A stretch of DNA of 59,830 nt from NCBI GenBank assembly GCA_964559945.1, contig CAZLJY010000004.1, positions 1-59,830 of the forward strand, read 5' to 3'. The stretch is from an uncultured Gammaproteobacteria bacterium. GTDB taxonomy: Bacteria > Pseudomonadota > Gammaproteobacteria > Xanthomonadales > SZUA-38. The stretch's first letter is position 1; each line of letters begins with the position of its first letter. Below, piece by piece: positions 1 through 15,857 of the stretch. The notes under the pieces were generated by a model, which saw only the letters and a program-made list of their open reading frames with translations, was not told the origin of the DNA and ran no database searches. A program made the position numbers and the translations under genes.

Positions 1-1974
1 GCGAGGCGCGCCACGCTGATCGAATTCAGTGCAAAACGCCCGCTCTGCAGCACCCATCGCCGGACTACCAGGTAACGGCACATGGGTCAGAGTATCAATG
101 ACCGGGTTGGCACCGCCGTTGTTTTGTAAAGGGCCAAGGAGGGGATCGCCGGTGACCATATTGGAGGCGCCATCTGCACAACTGCCATCGGAGATCAGGT
201 TGTTGGCATGGCGGTTAAACACCGGATTGTTGCTCGTTGCGCAATCGCCGCCTGCATTGACGCCAACAATAGTATTGGATATGCCCACTGAACCGCCGGA
301 CAAGGAGACGCCTCCGCCACTGCTAGCACTGTTGCCAACCCAGGTGTTATTGACGACAAAAATATAGCCGGAATAGTTTTCGATACCACCGCCGTTAACC
401 GATGCGGTATTGCCCGACAAGGTGACGTTGTAGAGCCCCATCCCCCCCTGGTTGTTTTCGATTCCGCCACCGCCTAGGGCAGTATTGTTAGATAGCGTGA
501 CGTCAAACAAACTCGTCTGGCTAGTGTTGTAAATAGCACCGCCATAGCCCACTGCACTACTATTGGTAATGAGGCTGTTGTACAGCAGCGCTATGCCAGA
601 ATTATGAATAGCGCCACCGTCACGACTGGCGGAGTTTGAAGAAAGCCCACTATCTCGTAGGCGCAAGGTCTCGGTATTGTAAATCGCACCACCGAACGTG
701 GCGCTATTACCACGAAAACGATAGCTGGAAAAAACGCCGTCAATGGATACTTCACCCCCGTTAAATATGGCGCCGCCCTGCTCAGTGGCAGTGTTGGAAG
801 AAACACTAGGGTTACCGCCGACAATGGGATCGAGTATTAAATCGAATTCTCCCAAGTTATAAAGGCCTCCCCCCCTTTGCGCCGTATTGGCGGAAAGCCT
901 TAAGTCCTGCAGGGAGATCGTCGCGTCAACGGCGTTGTAAATACCGCCGCCCATTTGGCCAGCAACGTTAGAAGACAGCGAGGGTCCACCACCAACCGTC
1001 ACGACACTGCCGTTAACGTTAAAAATTCCGCCGCCGTTAATGCTAGCAGTGTTTTCGTCTACACCGCCGTCGAGTCTCAGCTCCTCTTGGAAAGTAACCA
1101 CCCCCCCGTTATTGAAAATACCGCCGCCATTGGCTCCACTTTCGTTAGAGTCAACATTGACCAGGCCAATGGTGACATTGCCTTGCTGATTGTAGATACC
1201 GCCGCCATTACCCATTGCGGTGTTTTCAGAGACTTCTCCCCGCGCCGAGAAGTTGGTCGATTGGGTTTGTAGGATGACAGAACCGTAGTTGTTGAAGATC
1301 CCCCCACCTGCCGTGGCTTGGTTGTCTACTACCTGAGACCTAAGCAGTAATGCCTCGCCATAAAAATTCAGGACCCCGCCACCGTTTCCCCCGCTGGTAT
1401 TGCCGCTGATCAGGCTATCCACAGCGGTCAAGTTTCCGACGTTGTATAGGCCACCGCCACCGGGTACCGAATGGCTTTGCGTGATGGTGACACCCGTCAA
1501 TGTCAACGCATTACTTCGGAAATTGGCGATGGCACCGCCGAAGCCATCGGAATAACCATTGGTCAGCGTTAGGTCATTGAACGACACCGCTTCGGTTGTC
1601 TGAATGTTGGCGATTCGCGAAATATTTTGACCGGAGATCCTTGTCGGTCCTTGGAGAGTTACCTCCGAATTGATGATCAGCTCACCGTTTTCCAACAGAT
1701 GCAGTGAAGTGGGCAAATCAAACTCGATGGTGTCCGCCCCCTGGCCGGAGACACAACCACCGGTAGCGGTATCAGTATTAGCAGCAGTGATTGCGTCGCG
1801 CAGCGTACATACCGCTGAAGATGAGTTGTCTAGGCGGGTTTCTACCACAATCGTTGCTGCGAAAACCGAGGTGTTAATGAGTGCTTGGGCAACCGCCAAC
1901 GCGAGAGCTCGCCGATGAATCGGACCTCTTGCGCTTGCCGTTCCTTTTCTTTTCACTTTGGCCTTCGGTGACAT
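1..1974 (-). CDS. CSLREA-domain secreted/surface protein with GGAI/GGGI repeats and a choice-of-anchor-Q-like region (3' end outside the window)
   Basis: Translated by hand; absent from the ORF track because it runs off the left edge. ATG at 1974 gives MSPKAKVK...RRALALAVAQALINTSVFAATIVVETRLDNSSSAVCTLRDAITAANTD (CSLREA-like). Segments checked are in frame: GGGIFNNYG near 1290, NGGANPVIDTLTHVPLPGSP near 61-120, FDQRGAPR at the edge. Not every codon was checked for stops. Confidence 0.88.
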   Translation of the reverse strand, partial: MSPKAKVKRKGTASARGPIHRRALALAVAQALINTSVFAATIVVETRLDNSSSAVCTLRDAITAANTDTATGGCVSGQGADTIEFDLPTSLHLLENGELIINSEVTLQGPTRISGQNISRIANIQTTEAVSFNDLTLTNGYSDGFGGAIANFRSNALTLTGVTITQSHSVPGGGGLYNVGNLTAVDSLISGNTSGGNGGGVLNFYGEALLLRSQVVDNQATAGGGIFNNYGSVILQTQSTNFSARGEVSENTAMGNGGGIYNQQGNVTIGLVNVDSNESGANGGGIFNNGGVVTFQEELRLDGGVDENTASINGGGIFNVNGSVVTVGGGPSLSSNVAGQMGGGIYNAVDATISLQDLRLSANTAQRGGGLYNLGEFDLILDPIVGGNPSVSSNTATEQGGAIFNGGEVSIDGVFSSYRFRGNSATFGGAIYNTETLRLRDSGLSSNSASRDGGAIHNSGIALLYNSLITNSSAVGYGGAIYNTSQTSLFDVTLSNNTALGGGGIENNQGGMGLYNVTLSGNTASVNGGGIENYSGYIFVVNNTWVGNSASSGGGVSLSGGSVGISNTIVGVNAGGDCATSNNPVFNRHANNLISDGSCADGASNMVTGDPLLGPLQNNGGANPVIDTLTHVPLPGSPAMGAAERAFCTEFDQRGAPR

Positions 1975-2131
1975 CCCATTGCACTCCTATTGATACGGAC
2001 AACTCTGCGAAAGCGCGGCACAATTGTGTTGTGCAACGGATTTGAAACCCGGCGAAAAGGCTCTGGAAAGGTGCCAATTACCGACCCATCAACGCAGACC
2101 TATCGGGACCTAGCGCCCCATATTTTCTGTC

Positions 2132-2170
2132 TTGACCCCACGTACAGAAAAACGGGTGAAATTGGCTCAA
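2132..2170 (-). promoter_or_regulatory. Putative ECF-sigma promoter, copy 1 (TTGAGCC-N10-GTTTTTCTGTACGTGGG), upstream of the CSLREA gene
   Basis: Matches copy 2 at 2693-2731 at 32 of 39 nt with no gaps; same orientation as the downstream gene. Confidence 0.7.
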
Positions 2171-2261
2171 CAAAAAAAATCTTTTGCCCCGTCACCACTG
2201 CAAAACTGTTGCCAGCTCACGCTGCATGGGGCGTTGGCTTGACGGCGACTGTGATCGTGAC

Positions 2262-2290
2262 AAAAAAAGGCGCACCCCTGTGCGCCTTTT
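2262..2290. terminator. Intrinsic terminator after urcA (bidirectional shape)
   Basis: AAAAGGCGCAC-CCCT-GTGCGCCTTTT, 11-bp stem with A/T runs on both sides. Confidence 0.8.
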
Positions 2291-2311
2291 CTCTATCGGA
2301 TCCGTTGATGC

Positions 2312-2665
2312 CTAATGGGCAGTAAAAACCTGATATTCAAGATGGCGCCCTGTATCGGCGTAATGTGTCAGGTGACGGTTATCAATCTGATCAACAAATC
2401 GGGCAAATAACTCGCGATTGCAGGTCTCACGTTCGCTAACGGAGTTAATGACCGAATGCCAACAGAACCGCCGCGTCCTGGTTTTTAGCTTTTTAAACAA
2501 TTTTTCAACACCGGCCGGGCTGTCTAATAACGATTTTTCATACGTCACACGCAGGACGCCCTCTTGAGCCATGGCGGTGGTTAAACCCGTTAAAGCGAAG
2601 AGTAAAAACCCTGCCACTAGGATACTTTTGGTTTGAACTGCTGCGTTCTGATATTGCTTATGCAT
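2312..2665 (-). CDS. UrcA-family secreted small protein
   Basis: Signal peptide, then VTYEKSLLDSPAGVEKLFKKLKTRTRRFC...C...FVDQI, the UrcA-type pattern with two Cys. Confidence 0.75.
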   Translation of the reverse strand: MHKQYQNAAVQTKSILVAGFLLFALTGLTTAMAQEGVLRVTYEKSLLDSPAGVEKLFKKLKTRTRRFCWHSVINSVSERETCNRELFARFVDQIDNRHLTHYADTGRHLEYQVFTAH

Positions 2666-2692
2666 AGAGTGATCTCGCTAATTTTTGTTGCG

Positions 2693-2731
2693 TTGGTCCC
2701 ACATACAGAAAAACCGTTGCAATGGGCTCAA
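2693..2731 (-). promoter_or_regulatory. Putative ECF-sigma promoter, copy 2 (TTGAGCC-N10-GTTTTTCTGTATGTGGG), upstream of urcA
   Basis: Ends 27 nt before the urcA ATG; near-identical to 2132-2170. Confidence 0.72.
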
Positions 2732-2809
2732 TCCCAATGATCTTTTTAGCGATGTCGTGAGAAAACCGATGGTTGTCCAGGGAATACGGTTTGCTGGTAT
2801 TGAAAATAC

Positions 2810-5374
2810 TTAGCGACTTTCCGCGGCCAAATTTGCCGCATCAATGGCGGATTGAATATCCGCAGCATTTTGCGTCTGTCCTAATTGTTGATAGATCGAA
2901 AGCAAGTCAGCGGCTGACTTTTGGGTTTCGATATGTTGATCGCCAAGTCTGTCGAGCTGGGTTTCGTAGGCTGATAGCATGAGCTGCTCAGCTTCCACCG
3001 GGTCAGAATCACGGATACAGTTGGCTAAGTTTCGTTGTCCTTTAGCCACCGAATTATGGGTAGGCAACGCGGCCAGCACTATTTCTAGACCTTCGCGAAG
3101 TTCTGATTGGGCTTTTGAACAACTGCCCTGGCGTATATAAAACGCCCCTAGGCCCAGCTTAGTAATACCAATATTAGGATGGCCGGGCCTTAACAGGTTG
3201 GCAAAAATCTCCAAGCTCCGTAGACGGCGTTTTTCCGATAGATCTATGTCGCCGTTGGCCTCAGCAAGCTGGGCTAAGCCGGACAATGCGAAGCCGACTT
3301 CCCGGTGGTCGGGGCCGAGAATCTCTTCGGCAATCCTCAACGCTCGCTGGTAACTTTCCTCAGCCTCAATGGTATTTCCCATAGCCCTTTGGGTCGCGCC
3401 TAAGTCCTGCAAAACCTGTGAGGTAAAGGCCTCCAACTCGCCATTGATTTTTAGCTGTTGGGTCACAGCTTGCTCAACCAATGCCAGTGATTCATCGTAC
3501 TCACCCCGCTGGCGCAGTACATTGCCTAATCCAATCAGAGACATCGTGTGTTGGTCGGCCGACTCCGGGTGATGGCTAGCAAAAACCGGCAAAACCTGGC
3601 GATAGGTTTCCTCCGCAAGATCCAAGTCGCCAGCGTTGGTTGCCAATCTGGCGATCCGGAAACGGCTGTTGGCCAGGCCAAGGGGGTCATCAATGTGGAG
3701 GCGAATGGCGATGGACTGCTGACCCAATTCAACGGCCTTGTCCTGCTGTCCCTGGGCTGCCGCGATTCGCGATAGATTGATCAGCACATCAGCATAATCT
3801 GCACTTTGGGCACCCGCTAATTGTTCACGCAATAGCAACTCCTTGCCCCATAGTTCTTCCGCCAAGGCGTAGTTTCCTAACACGCTATAGATACTGGCGA
3901 AGGTATCGTTAAGATCCGCTTGCAACTGCGGTTGATCACCTAACTCCTGTTGAGCGCGCTGCGCTCCTGAACTCAATAAGTCCATGGCCGTCAGAGTCTC
4001 ACCCTTTGAATTATTGGGGTGGGCCTGTTGAAACACAGTGACCAAAAAGTCTTTGGTGGCATCTGCCCGTGCCGTTTGTTCCACCAATGCCTGGTTTTGT
4101 TGTTTCTGCTTCCAAGCAAACCAAGCGACCCCCCCGCTCAAAGCAAGCACCAACGCCGCGATGACTGCCGAAAGCGCTACGGGCACTCGATGACGGCGAA
4201 TAAACCGCGAGGCCGAGTAGGTAAAGGTATCGGGGCGCGCCATCACCGGCCGATGGGTCAAGTGACGTTGAATATCTTCAGCAAGGGCGCCTGCGGTTGC
4301 ATAGCGTTCGCCAGTTTGGCGTTTGAGGGACTTGGCTAAGATGTTTTCCAAATCGCCGCTTAATCGGTCAACCAGGCTTTTCGCATTCAACTGGCGTTGG
4401 CGGGCAATCGTCTCCAGGTGGTCATGGGAATCAGCACTGGAGAGCAGCTGGTTTAAGCGGCGACTGGCTAGGGTTGCGTCTTCTTCGCTGAGTACTCGCA
4501 AGTTCTTGGGAATGTTGTCATTGCTTAACTTGTGAGCATCAACTCCTGCCAGCAACCAATAGAGCAACATGCCCAAACCGTACACATCGGTTCTTGTTGA
4601 TACCGGCTGACCCAATAGCTGCTCCGGCGCGGCAAACTTTGGTGTAACTGGAAGGTGTGTGGTCAGCGGCTGAGGATTTTCCTCGTTTGATTCCCCAACG
4701 ATTTTGGCGACGCCAAAATCCAGCAACTTCACTTGCCCAGATTCGGCCACCAGGATGTTTGCTGGCTTAATGTCTCGATGTAAGGTTAGATTCTGGTGAG
4801 CATGTTCAACTGCACTACAGACCTGCAAGAACAATCCCAGCCGCGCCTCAATGGATAAACAATTTTGATCAGCGTATTCATCAATCGGCCGGCCTTCGAT
4901 GTGCTCCATGACAAAGTAAGGCGTGCCATTGTCGCTCATGCCGCCATCGAACAATTGGCAAATGTTCGGGTGGTCAAGCCCAGCGAGGATTTGCCGTTCG
5001 CGCAAGAATAACGCGGCTGACTGGGGTTCTGCTAACGCCGCTGGTAACACTTTGATGGCGACCTCTTGGTCGAATTGGCCATCACTTCGTGAAGCCAGAT
5101 AAACCTCACCCATACCGCCGCGGCCCAGCAATCGGGTGGGTTGGTAATCGCCAATTTTCTCAGGCAACACGGGCTCTTCTTCCTCCAGCAACGTGTTGAA
5201 GCGGTCACCCAAACCTTCAAAGTAACTGCCAGCGGCATTCTGTTGGGACAACAAATTGTCGATCATTCGTCGATCTTCGTCAGCGCCGGCCAGTGCTCCA
5301 TCCAAGTAGCGCTCACGTTCTGGCGAATCTAGCTGCAAGGCCTGCAGATAGATTTCTTCAAGTTCAGGCGTCAC
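2810..5374 (-). CDS. Membrane-anchored Hanks-type Ser/Thr kinase with C-terminal TPR repeats
   Basis: LGRGGMGEVY, VAIK, HRDIKPAN, DFG and APEQ motifs; one hydrophobic segment (VALSAVIAALVLALSGGVAWFAW); helical TPR repeats. GTG start. Confidence 0.93.
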   Translation of the reverse strand: MTPELEEIYLQALQLDSPERERYLDGALAGADEDRRMIDNLLSQQNAAGSYFEGLGDRFNTLLEEEEPVLPEKIGDYQPTRLLGRGGMGEVYLASRSDGQFDQEVAIKVLPAALAEPQSAALFLRERQILAGLDHPNICQLFDGGMSDNGTPYFVMEHIEGRPIDEYADQNCLSIEARLGLFLQVCSAVEHAHQNLTLHRDIKPANILVAESGQVKLLDFGVAKIVGESNEENPQPLTTHLPVTPKFAAPEQLLGQPVSTRTDVYGLGMLLYWLLAGVDAHKLSNDNIPKNLRVLSEEDATLASRRLNQLLSSADSHDHLETIARQRQLNAKSLVDRLSGDLENILAKSLKRQTGERYATAGALAEDIQRHLTHRPVMARPDTFTYSASRFIRRHRVPVALSAVIAALVLALSGGVAWFAWKQKQQNQALVEQTARADATKDFLVTVFQQAHPNNSKGETLTAMDLLSSGAQRAQQELGDQPQLQADLNDTFASIYSVLGNYALAEELWGKELLLREQLAGAQSADYADVLINLSRIAAAQGQQDKAVELGQQSIAIRLHIDDPLGLANSRFRIARLATNAGDLDLAEETYRQVLPVFASHHPESADQHTMSLIGLGNVLRQRGEYDESLALVEQAVTQQLKINGELEAFTSQVLQDLGATQRAMGNTIEAEESYQRALRIAEEILGPDHREVGFALSGLAQLAEANGDIDLSEKRRLRSLEIFANLLRPGHPNIGITKLGLGAFYIRQGSCSKAQSELREGLEIVLAALPTHNSVAKGQRNLANCIRDSDPVEAEQLMLSAYETQLDRLGDQHIETQKSAADLLSIYQQLGQTQNAADIQSAIDAANLAAESR

Positions 5375-5398
5375 GGGCTTAACCTTTCATTCACGTTA

Positions 5399-5965
5399 CT
5401 ACTGCGGCTTGTCATGCTGCTCACCCAGCGTTTGATATAGCGCCGCCAGTGCGAGGGTCCAGTCGCGCTTCACCGTGGCCAGGGAAATTTCTAGTGCCTC
5501 GGCAATTTGCTCGTTGCCCAAACCACCAAAAACGCGGCACTCCACCACTCGACTGCGCCGCGGGTGCTGGACCTCTAGTTTTTCCAACGCCTCGTGCAGT
5601 TCTAATAGTTCCAGCAAGGTTGCACCTTTGCCGGACAGTTCTTTCGGGAGGGTTAGGTTGTCGGCGTTTCCGCCGCGCTTGGCGGCGCCGCTGTGTTCAG
5701 CATAGTTAACCAACACTTGACGCATCGCCTTGGCGGCTGTGGCAAAGAAGTGTTTTTTATTGCGCCAGCTGGGCGGCGACCGGTCGGCCAACTTCAAATA
5801 GGTTTCGTGAATCAGCGCGGTGGTATTGAGGGTATCGTTTCCCCGCCAGCGTCGTCGATGAGCCCGCGCAATGACCTTAAGCTCATCATAAATGGACTGA
5901 AACAAAGCCTGCTGATCTGCGGGATCAATTCCAGCAACCGGCCCATCGTTTGTCTCACTCATCAT
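5399..5965 (-). CDS. ECF sigma factor, TIGR02999-like (kinase-associated)
   Basis: IYDELKVIA...DTLNTTALIHETYLKL...FFATAAKAMRQVLV...AAKRGG...VECRVFGGL...IAEALEISLATVKRDW. ATG at 5965 follows a GGGAGAG SD. Confidence 0.92.
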   Translation of the reverse strand: MMSETNDGPVAGIDPADQQALFQSIYDELKVIARAHRRRWRGNDTLNTTALIHETYLKLADRSPPSWRNKKHFFATAAKAMRQVLVNYAEHSGAAKRGGNADNLTLPKELSGKGATLLELLELHEALEKLEVQHPRRSRVVECRVFGGLGNEQIAEALEISLATVKRDWTLALAALYQTLGEQHDKPQ

Positions 5966-6181
5966 GCGCTCTCCCTGCAAAATAAAACAGCGGTGCTCGC
6001 AGCTTTCTGCCAGGTCAGGGATTTGCTGGCTTAAGCACTGAGCCTTCGAGCTTAGCAGGTCTATCCTGCCTCGCTCTATCAGAACTTATTTAGTAATACA
6101 CAAGTTAACTTACGGGATCTAGGAAAGCGGAGGGATTGGATCGGGTGTGGCGAAAACTGCAGGGATCTGGAGACCGGTGAA

Positions 6182-6210
6182 GTCCGGGCTGCCATTGATG
6201 CAGCCCGGAC
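6182..6210 (-). terminator. GC-rich hairpin after the protease gene
   Basis: GTCCGGGCTGC-N7-GCAGCCCGGAC; weak U tail. Confidence 0.55.
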
Positions 6211-6221
6211 GTTAGCGAATA

Positions 6222-14806: not shown

Positions 14807-15093
14807 TGACGGATACCACCCAACCGCTGTTTGAAATTTTTATCCGCTCTCGCCGCGGCCTTGATCATAAACATGTAGGCAGCCTGCACGCTCAGGACCA
14901 CCAAGCCGCCTTAGGCTACGCGCGCGACGTGTATACCCGGCGCAGTGAAGGGGTCAGCATCTGGGTGGTGAAATCCGAAGATATTGTGGCCAGCCAAGAG
15001 GACGAAGCATCCGCGTTCTACGATCCTAGCGACGATAAAGTGTATCGGCACGCCTCCTTCTACGATGTGCCGGACGAAGTGAAACACATGTAA
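14803..15093 (+). CDS. paaB: Phenylacetyl-CoA epoxidase subunit B
   Basis: [21 protein letters not shown]...[17 protein letters not shown]...DKVYRH. Confidence 0.96.
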
Positions 15094-15857
15094 TGGATAA
15101 CCCAATCAATACTGACGTCTTTGAATATGCACTGCGCCTGGGTGATGACGCCCTGACCCTGGGGCACCGGTTATCGGAATGGACCGCCAAAGCGCCCTTT
15201 CTTGAGGAAGACATTGCCCTTGGCAATATTGCCTTAGATTATGTTGGCCGGGCGAGATTGCTGCTGACTTACGCCGGCGAGGTGGAAGGTGAGGGACGAG
15301 ACGAAGATCAGCTGGCCTATTTGCGCGACACTCGCCAATACCGCAACTTGCTAATTTGCGAGCTGCCCATTGGCAACTTCGCTGACACCATGGCGCGGCA
15401 ATTGTTGATTGATGCCTTCGAAGTCCCCTACTTCCATGCTTTGTCAGAAAGTACCGACGCCACGATCGCGGGCATTGCGGGCAAAGCCGTCAAAGAAGCG
15501 AAGTATCATCTGCGCCATTCCGCAGGCTGGGTTGTGCGCCTGGGTGATGGCACGAACGAGTCGCGGGCCAAAATCACCCAAGCCTTTAACGACGTCTGGG
15601 GCTATGCCGCTGAGATGTTTGTGACCGACCCTCTAGAAGCCCGGTTAGTTGACGCAGGTATTGCCATTGAACGCGAACCGTTGCAGGCGCTTTGGCAGGG
15701 CGAGGTCGAATCAGTATTGAGTAAAGCCACACTGGAATTGCCGCAGGCGAGCTGGCAAGTGGACGGCGGTCGCCGGGGCGAACACACCGAACACCTAGGC
15801 CACTTATTGGCCCAACTGCAATTTATGCAACGGGCTTACCCGGGACTGCAATGGTAG
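15093..15857 (+). CDS. paaC: Phenylacetyl-CoA epoxidase subunit C
   Basis: LRLGDDALTLGHRLSEW, EEDIALGNIALD, KEAKYH, QRAYPGLQW. Confidence 0.96.
   Translation: MDNPINTDVFEYALRLGDDALTLGHRLSEWTAKAPFLEEDIALGNIALDYVGRARLLLTYAGEVEGEGRDEDQLAYLRDTRQYRNLLICELPIGNFADTMARQLLIDAFEVPYFHALSESTDATIAGIAGKAVKEAKYHLRHSAGWVVRLGDGTNESRAKITQAFNDVWGYAAEMFVTDPLEARLVDAGIAIEREPLQALWQGEVESVLSKATLELPQASWQVDGGRRGEHTEHLGHLLAQLQFMQRAYPGLQW

Follow-up and report, generated by a model that had tools for sequence, protein, structure and literature searches.

The window examined here, a stretch of 59,830 nucleotides, carries two closely similar DNA elements, one in front of a urcA-family gene and one in front of a gene for a large surface protein. 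Both genes lie 3' of a sigma factor gene and a kinase gene, raising the question of what the two elements are and which protein might read them. The initial annotation had proposed that they are recognized by the kinase-associated ECF sigma factor encoded nearby. The genes and the terminator that define the locus are as follows.

8012-6222, minus strand: trypsin-like peptidase gene
5399-5980, minus strand: ECF sigma factor gene (TIGR02999, 169.7 bits; PF07638; PF08281)
2810-5374, minus strand: Hanks-type Ser/Thr kinase gene, 854 aa (Pkinase, 146 bits)
2312-2665, minus strand: urcA-family gene, 117 aa, with a signal-peptide-like N-terminus (TIGR04433); first predicted target
2262-2290, minus strand: intrinsic terminator 3' of urcA (sequence and folding)
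1-1974, minus strand: large secreted repeat-protein gene running off the window edge (signal peptide, CTLRDAITAANTD motif); second predicted target

The kinase carries GRGGMG, HRDIKPAN, DFG and APE in its N-terminal catalytic domain and has a single membrane segment and, at its C-terminus, TPR repeats. The urcA product passes the TIGR04433 model (31.7 bits against a cut-off of 25) and has no match in Pfam. A shared-word search of 5.8 billion protein clusters recovered the protein itself alone, and it is therefore a very divergent member of the UrcA family. The repeat protein scores above the cut-offs of the choice-of-anchor Q (42.4 vs 25), POMP repeat (35 vs 15) and Chlam_PMP (50.2 vs 20.6) models, and its gene is called from the same ATG in an independent contig. 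The earlier labels of the ECF sigma factor, kinase and urcA genes thus stood, but the CSLREA label of the repeat protein did so only in part: the motif CTLRDAITAANTD is visible, while the CSLREA N-terminal model TIGR04214 reaches 19.5 bits, below its cut-off of 25. Four public contigs, essentially from one organism, carry urcA, and all of them end inside the PMP-repeat gene. The contigs L005 and L006, independent assemblies of the same organism, break off within it just as the window does; in this gene, many repeat families of 16-38 nt, located at 200-1600 of the window, likely break assemblies.

The two elements, with the parts assigned to them as candidate promoters, and the longer repeat in which each is embedded are located as follows.

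2693-2731, minus strand: predicted promoter copy 1, upstream of urcA (sequence and family-matrix score); -35 TGAGCC at 2730-2725, -10 TCTGTA at 2709-2704, then TG at 2703-2702
2132-2170, minus strand: predicted promoter copy 2, upstream of the PMP-repeat/CSLREA-like gene (sequence and family-matrix score); -35 TGAGCC at 2169-2164, -10 TCTGTA at 2148-2143
2681-2746, minus strand: extended repeat around copy 1, 66 nt, 73% identity to 2120-2185
2120-2185, minus strand: extended repeat around copy 2, 66 nt, 73% identity to 2681-2746

On the minus strand, copy 1 (2731-2693) reads TTGAGCCCATTGCAACGGTTTTTCTGTATGTGGGACCAA and copy 2 (2170-2132) reads TTGAGCCAATTTCACCCGTTTTTCTGTACGTGGGGTCAA. The two 39-mers are identical at 32/39 positions without a gap, exactly as first described, and this similarity lies beyond anything seen when both intergenic regions were resampled 1000 times with a first-order Markov model, the best 39-nt match averaging 20.9 positions and reaching at most 26. 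The longest identical runs are TTGAGCC, GTTTTTCTGTA and GTGGG. The description of TGAGCC and TCTGTA blocks 15 nt apart was equally accurate: both hexamers are invariant, the spacer is 15 nt in each copy, and the exact pattern TGAGCC-N15-TCTGTA occurs in the window in these two copies only. The 39-bp extent, however, was an underestimate, as the repeat finder stretches the similarity of the copies to 66 nt with 73% identity.

Copy 1 is placed between the kinase gene and urcA, with the urcA ATG 38 nt beyond the end of the -10 hexamer, whereas copy 2 follows urcA and precedes the repeat-protein gene, whose ATG (1974) is 168 nt beyond the end of its -10 hexamer. The initial annotation had also placed a terminator (2262-2290) between the two genes. 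It was recovered as a hairpin with a GC-rich 7-bp stem (GGCGCAC/GTGCGCC) and a 4-nt loop (AGGG), followed by seven T, which together occupy 2262-2286. A 66-nt segment that includes the hairpin has a folding energy of -26.3 kcal/mol (z = -5.4), with 0/200 shuffles as stable. The argument built on it is sound: since transcription would end after urcA, the second gene needs a promoter of its own. The 168-nt 5' leader that follows copy 2 is not unusually structured (z = -0.96), and a scan of 1800-2900 against Rfam gave no family at gathering score, the sub-threshold matches falling mainly on the terminator hairpin.

The candidate reader of the elements is encoded by the gene at 5399-5980. The predicted sigma factor comprises 193 aa (187 aa if it starts at the ATG at 5962 chosen by the gene caller) and contains regions 2 and 4 only, and the kinase gene starts 25 nt past its stop codon. 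Region 2.2 reads NTTALIHETYL, in which NTTA replaces the acidic DAED motif. T54 and A55 do not vary in an alignment of 24 sequences, and conservation of N52 and T53 is at least 90%. The DNA-contacting stretches ATVKR(D/E)W and HFFATAxKAMRQVLVNYA are nearly invariant among the 24 relatives as well, so that a shared promoter specificity is expected across the family. No anti-sigma factor was found among the adjacent genes, as the neighbouring trypsin-like peptidase and UrcA match no anti-sigma family. A sequence search of the PDB returned no relative of the sigma factor at E <= 0.01; several ECF sigma structures exist, and the family is quite divergent from the structurally studied ECFs.

These features recall the ECF43 group. 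According to reviews and the EcfK paper, its hallmark is xTTA instead of DAED in region 2.2, and the threonine is phosphorylated by the partner kinase, providing the negative charge required for binding to the core polymerase. The window protein has NTTA at this position, as compared to STTA in EcfP and the ECF43 consensus QTTA. As in EcfP-PknT of Vibrio parahaemolyticus and EcfK-PknS of Xanthomonas citri, the sigma gene is located directly upstream of the gene for a membrane Hanks-type kinase, and the restriction to regions 2 and 4 and adjacent genes free of an anti-sigma factor are shared with ECF43. Many relatives of the window sigma factor belong to the Lysobacterales/Xanthomonadales, matching what has been reported for ECF43. 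By motif and gene arrangement, the protein is a candidate ECF43-type, kinase-linked sigma factor. Its predicted targets are an UrcA-family protein and a PMP-repeat surface protein, whereas polymyxin-resistance genes or a type VI secretion system are the targets of EcfP and EcfK.

If the sigma family shares a promoter specificity, the element should recur beside related sigma genes. Strict orthologous footprinting was impossible, because urcA has no relatives in the protein-cluster collection, the public contigs represent one organism, and the closest sigma-kinase pairs are followed by unrelated genes. The survey instead covered 84 non-redundant loci from other species (1.06 Mb), with sigma relatives at 45-75% identity. 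The 86 family loci fetched include one exact duplicate and two near-duplicates; 85 are distinct, and 74 of these 85 have a kinase match, mostly directly downstream of the sigma gene. The sigma factor and the kinase are the only genes that the family loci have in common.

The window hexamers, with up to one mismatch, gave 29 matches (9 exact) in the 84 loci at a spacer of 15, and 1-8 matches (0-1 exact) at each other spacer from 8 to 23. A dyad search for hexamer pairs, performed with no prior from the window and with the sigma and kinase genes masked, ranked the same architecture at the top: TGAGCC-N15-CCGGTA in 19 loci, TGAGCC-N14-TCCGGT in 17 and TGAGCC-N14-TTCTGT in 13. Without masking, the search was overwhelmed by conserved sigma coding sequence and GC-rich coding bias. 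The pattern TGAGCC-N15-YCKGTA identifies 41 sites in 29/84 loci, as compared to 0-2 at other spacers from 10 to 20. These sites define a family consensus of TGAGCC, 15 nt and (T/C)C(G/T)GTA, followed by T (32/41) and G (25/41), with T/C preferred immediately 5' of the -10 and a run rich in purines 7-10 nt past it. TCTGTA, the block singled out in the window at the outset, does recur in the family, but as a minority variant, CCGGTA being the commoner -10. A position matrix finds 76 sites at 16 bits or more in 46/84 loci and 0 in shuffles; as it was trained on the fixed-pattern sites, its core columns are circular, and the spacer control and the de novo dyads alone are independent of the window. 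Applied to the window, the family matrix gives copy 1 23.7 bits and copy 2 25.0 bits, and both values fall among those of the training sites; the runner-up in the 59.8 kb reaches 13.8 bits.

The location of the family sites bears on which protein reads them. Of the 41, 30 are found either at the junction of the sigma and kinase genes or no more than 350 nt upstream of the sigma gene, in a region that makes up 3.4% of the searched positions (binomial P = 1.6e-35). It is very unlikely that the elements are promoters of another alternative sigma factor, such as the envelope-stress factor sigma E, with the nearby sigma gene there by coincidence. The sigma E consensus, GGAACTT-N16-TCTGA, is loosely like TGAGCC-N15-TCTGTA; its -10 TCTGA resembles TCTGTA, and the predicted targets in the window are envelope or secreted proteins. 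Nevertheless, the motif clusters beside the genes of this very sigma family in dozens of species, including autoregulatory positions, and its -35 lacks the AAC typical of ECF -35 elements. A sigma E-type GGAACTT was found neither in the window copies nor in the family: both copies and all 41 family sites read TGAGCC at -35. The recurrence of the motif throughout the family instead supports, on the strength of sequence comparison, the initial proposal that the neighbouring, kinase-associated ECF sigma factor recognizes the element.

The genes that the family sites face are consistent with a promoter function. The sites are oriented toward start codons at distances of 6-240 nt, which are 32-39 nt in several loci, so that the 38 nt between copy 1 and its ATG are typical. 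They face the sigma gene itself, the kinase gene in eight loci, and genes for large lipoproteins or secreted proteins with Calx-beta, Lcl_C, Big_5 or Ig-like domains, as well as Gcw_chp outer-membrane proteins, OsmC-like proteins and a cytochrome c. In six Gemmatimonadota loci, a family site faces a SAM-dependent methyltransferase gene. Three sites (in L039, L042 and L079) resemble the window copies in lying 3' of the kinase gene and on its strand. The secreted UrcA-family protein and the PMP-repeat surface protein fit this envelope and secreted theme of the family.

Several individual loci deserve description. In the Gemmatimonadota loci L091, L097, L102, L106, L109 and L115, the methyltransferase gene is divergent from the sigma gene and the site lies at an almost constant distance of 43-79 nt from the sigma start, an arrangement that looks like a conserved divergent regulatory unit. 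L082 carries two strong tandem copies of the motif, 83 nt apart (5651-5760), upstream of the gene for a 665-aa secreted Peptidase_S74 (endosialidase chaperone) protein. In L096, three one-mismatch matches spaced exactly 327 nt apart (14995-15675) fall in a repetitive coding-like stretch and look like false positives from a repeat-protein gene.

Related loci resemble autoregulated ECF operons, with the motif upstream of the sigma gene (for example in L050, L057, L062 and L074) or at the sigma-kinase junction (L007, L009, L039, L049, L058, L088 and L114). The window differs from such operons in having no good site before either the sigma or the kinase gene; here the motif would serve the two downstream genes only. 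Its sigma-kinase junction contains TGAGCA-N15-GTAGTA (5397-5423, minus strand), overlapping the stop codon of the sigma gene. This sequence resembles the kinase-gene promoter of the family in a decayed or very weak form. Further upstream, an 18-nt inverted repeat at 6175-6217 (83% complementary, 7-nt loop) just past the stop codon of the trypsin-like peptidase gene suggests a terminator. Given this putative terminator, the sigma-kinase operon is probably transcribed from a separate promoter within 5981-6170, a region without any match to the ECF motif. On the plus strand, TGAGCCTTCGAGCTTAGCAGGTCTATC at 6039-6065 has two -10 mismatches and a score of less than 8 bits. Like many family sites it diverges from the sigma gene, but it is directed into the peptidase gene in antisense, and matches of this kind are as frequent in the window as chance predicts.

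The 3' part of the element offers a different explanation, namely that a dimeric transcription factor binds each copy as its operator. Each copy includes TTGAGCCCA ... TGGGACCAA, an imperfect inverted repeat with 7/9 positions complementary in both, and GTGGGnnCAA past the -10 is kept in both copies, though an ECF promoter has no need of it. The family comparison makes such an operator extremely unlikely: the 3' arm is not conserved across the 41 sites, in which TG alone follows the -10, and on this ground the inverted-repeat reading was rejected. Compensatory changes between the window copies are also absent, and the sigma factor is the only DNA-binding protein common to the family loci. The strict 15-nt spacer, the fixed orientation to genes and the typical distance to the start codon are, by contrast, those of a promoter.

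While the motif is widespread, its association with these two target genes is not. The genes downstream of the closest sigma relatives (75%, 74%, 66%, 60% and 51% identity) are unrelated to those in the window; neither urcA nor a PMP-repeat gene follows the kinase gene in the three closest (75%, 74% and 66%), and tblastn detected no homologues of the urcA, PMP-repeat or trypsin-like proteins in the 86 fetched family loci. The use of urcA and the PMP-repeat gene as targets is not conserved among the closest sigma relatives. The initial annotation had looked to orthologous loci for conservation of the motif, and this expectation held across the family, in the 46/84 loci detected by the matrix, but not in the form of a conserved urcA or surface-protein gene in the closest relatives.

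Database-wide pattern searches were dominated by chance. The strict 28-nt pattern TTGAGCC-N10-GTTTTTCTGTA gave 26 matches in 596 Gb, all in unrelated taxa, when about 17 are expected by chance according to our own estimate. In the reverse direction, TGAGCC-N13-TTTCTGTATG, a pattern of 16 specified bases for which chance matches dominate, led to the sigma factor in 3/118 loci sampled among the matches listed, all three of them already known.

The similarity of the two copies exceeds what promoter function would explain. Outside the core, copies 1 and 2 agree at 20/27 positions, as compared to 7-12/27 in 13 other same-locus pairs and a mean of 8.8/27 for pairs of sites from different loci; the only different-locus pairs that reach 20/27 are orthologous sites in three related Gemmatimonadales genomes. 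Judged against the other same-locus pairs, the extra similarity is therefore not required by function, and it points to a recent duplication of a promoter cassette of about 66 nt. Common descent explaining part of the similarity would also suit a neutral remnant of a local duplication, or a small dispersed repeat, that plays no part in regulation. We regard such a neutral origin as highly improbable, because the perfectly conserved blocks are those of the independently derived family consensus and only two copies are present in the 59.8 kb. A REP- or MITE-like dispersed repeat is at odds with these two copies and with the strict pattern, which occurs elsewhere at about chance level and in unrelated taxa only.

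The two copies are very probably paralogous promoters of the adjacent, putatively kinase-activated ECF sigma factor, one having arisen from the other by duplication. The repeat, the terminator, the gene identities and the recurrence of the motif beside related sigma genes are established here; from them, we infer that the window sigma factor recognizes the promoters. RNA polymerase carrying this factor, encoded 0.7-3.8 kb upstream at 5399-5980, would read both elements, with region 4 contacting TGAGCC at -35 and region 2 contacting TCTGTA(TG) at -10, 15 nt downstream. By analogy with EcfP and EcfK, the factor is probably inactive until the adjacent membrane kinase phosphorylates T54, the threonine of NTTA. 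A signal sensed by the periplasmic TPR domain may activate the kinase, and phosphorylated T54 would then permit binding to the core polymerase, so that the holoenzyme could initiate at the two TGAGCC-N15-TCTGTA promoters. Start sites would be expected about 7-10 nt past the -10, near 2697 and 2136. Kinase signalling may thereby induce both target genes, the large PMP-repeat surface protein being expressed from a transcript of its own, as the first would end at the terminator 3' of urcA. Most likely, one promoter originated as a copy of about 66 nt around the other.

As a predicted pair of ECF-sigma promoters, the element is supported as an ordinary type of regulation, and the logic of the locus is one that a specialist would expect. 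The Bacillus subtilis sigma W promoter is TGAAAC-N16-CGTA, and AAC is usual in the -35 of ECF promoters. The element shares with the sigma W promoter a bipartite structure, a rigid spacer, a -10 ending in GTA and T-rich stretches in the spacer. The -35 hexamer and GTA are also similarly spaced, by 18 nt in the element and by 17 nt in the sigma W promoter. It departs from classical ECF promoters in its -35, TGAGCC without AAC, and in its -10, extended to YCKGTATG. No ECF43 promoter consensus was found in the literature searched, whose scope did not include the primary studies of EcfP and EcfK targets. We tentatively propose, with a little more doubt than confidence, that TGAGCC-N15-YCKGTATG could be an undescribed consensus of kinase-phosphorylated ECF43-type sigma factors in Gammaproteobacteria, Gemmatimonadota and Acidobacteriota.

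To our knowledge, signalling through kinase-activated ECF sigma factors has been established only recently, and just two such factors have been studied in any depth. A consensus with a rigid spacer is easily searched and would allow regulons to be predicted in hundreds of uncultured genomes. If the proposal is true, such regulons would include the sigma factor and kinase genes themselves, genes for secreted proteins with Calx-beta, Lcl_C or Ig-like domains, and genes for Gcw_chp proteins, OsmC and methyltransferases. The consensus would also supply reporter constructs for probing the signals sensed by the membrane kinases. In this locus, Ser/Thr kinase signalling is predicted to control an UrcA-family protein and a large surface protein with PMP repeats, and the window would show the growth of a regulon through a 66-nt promoter cassette copied in front of a neighbouring gene.
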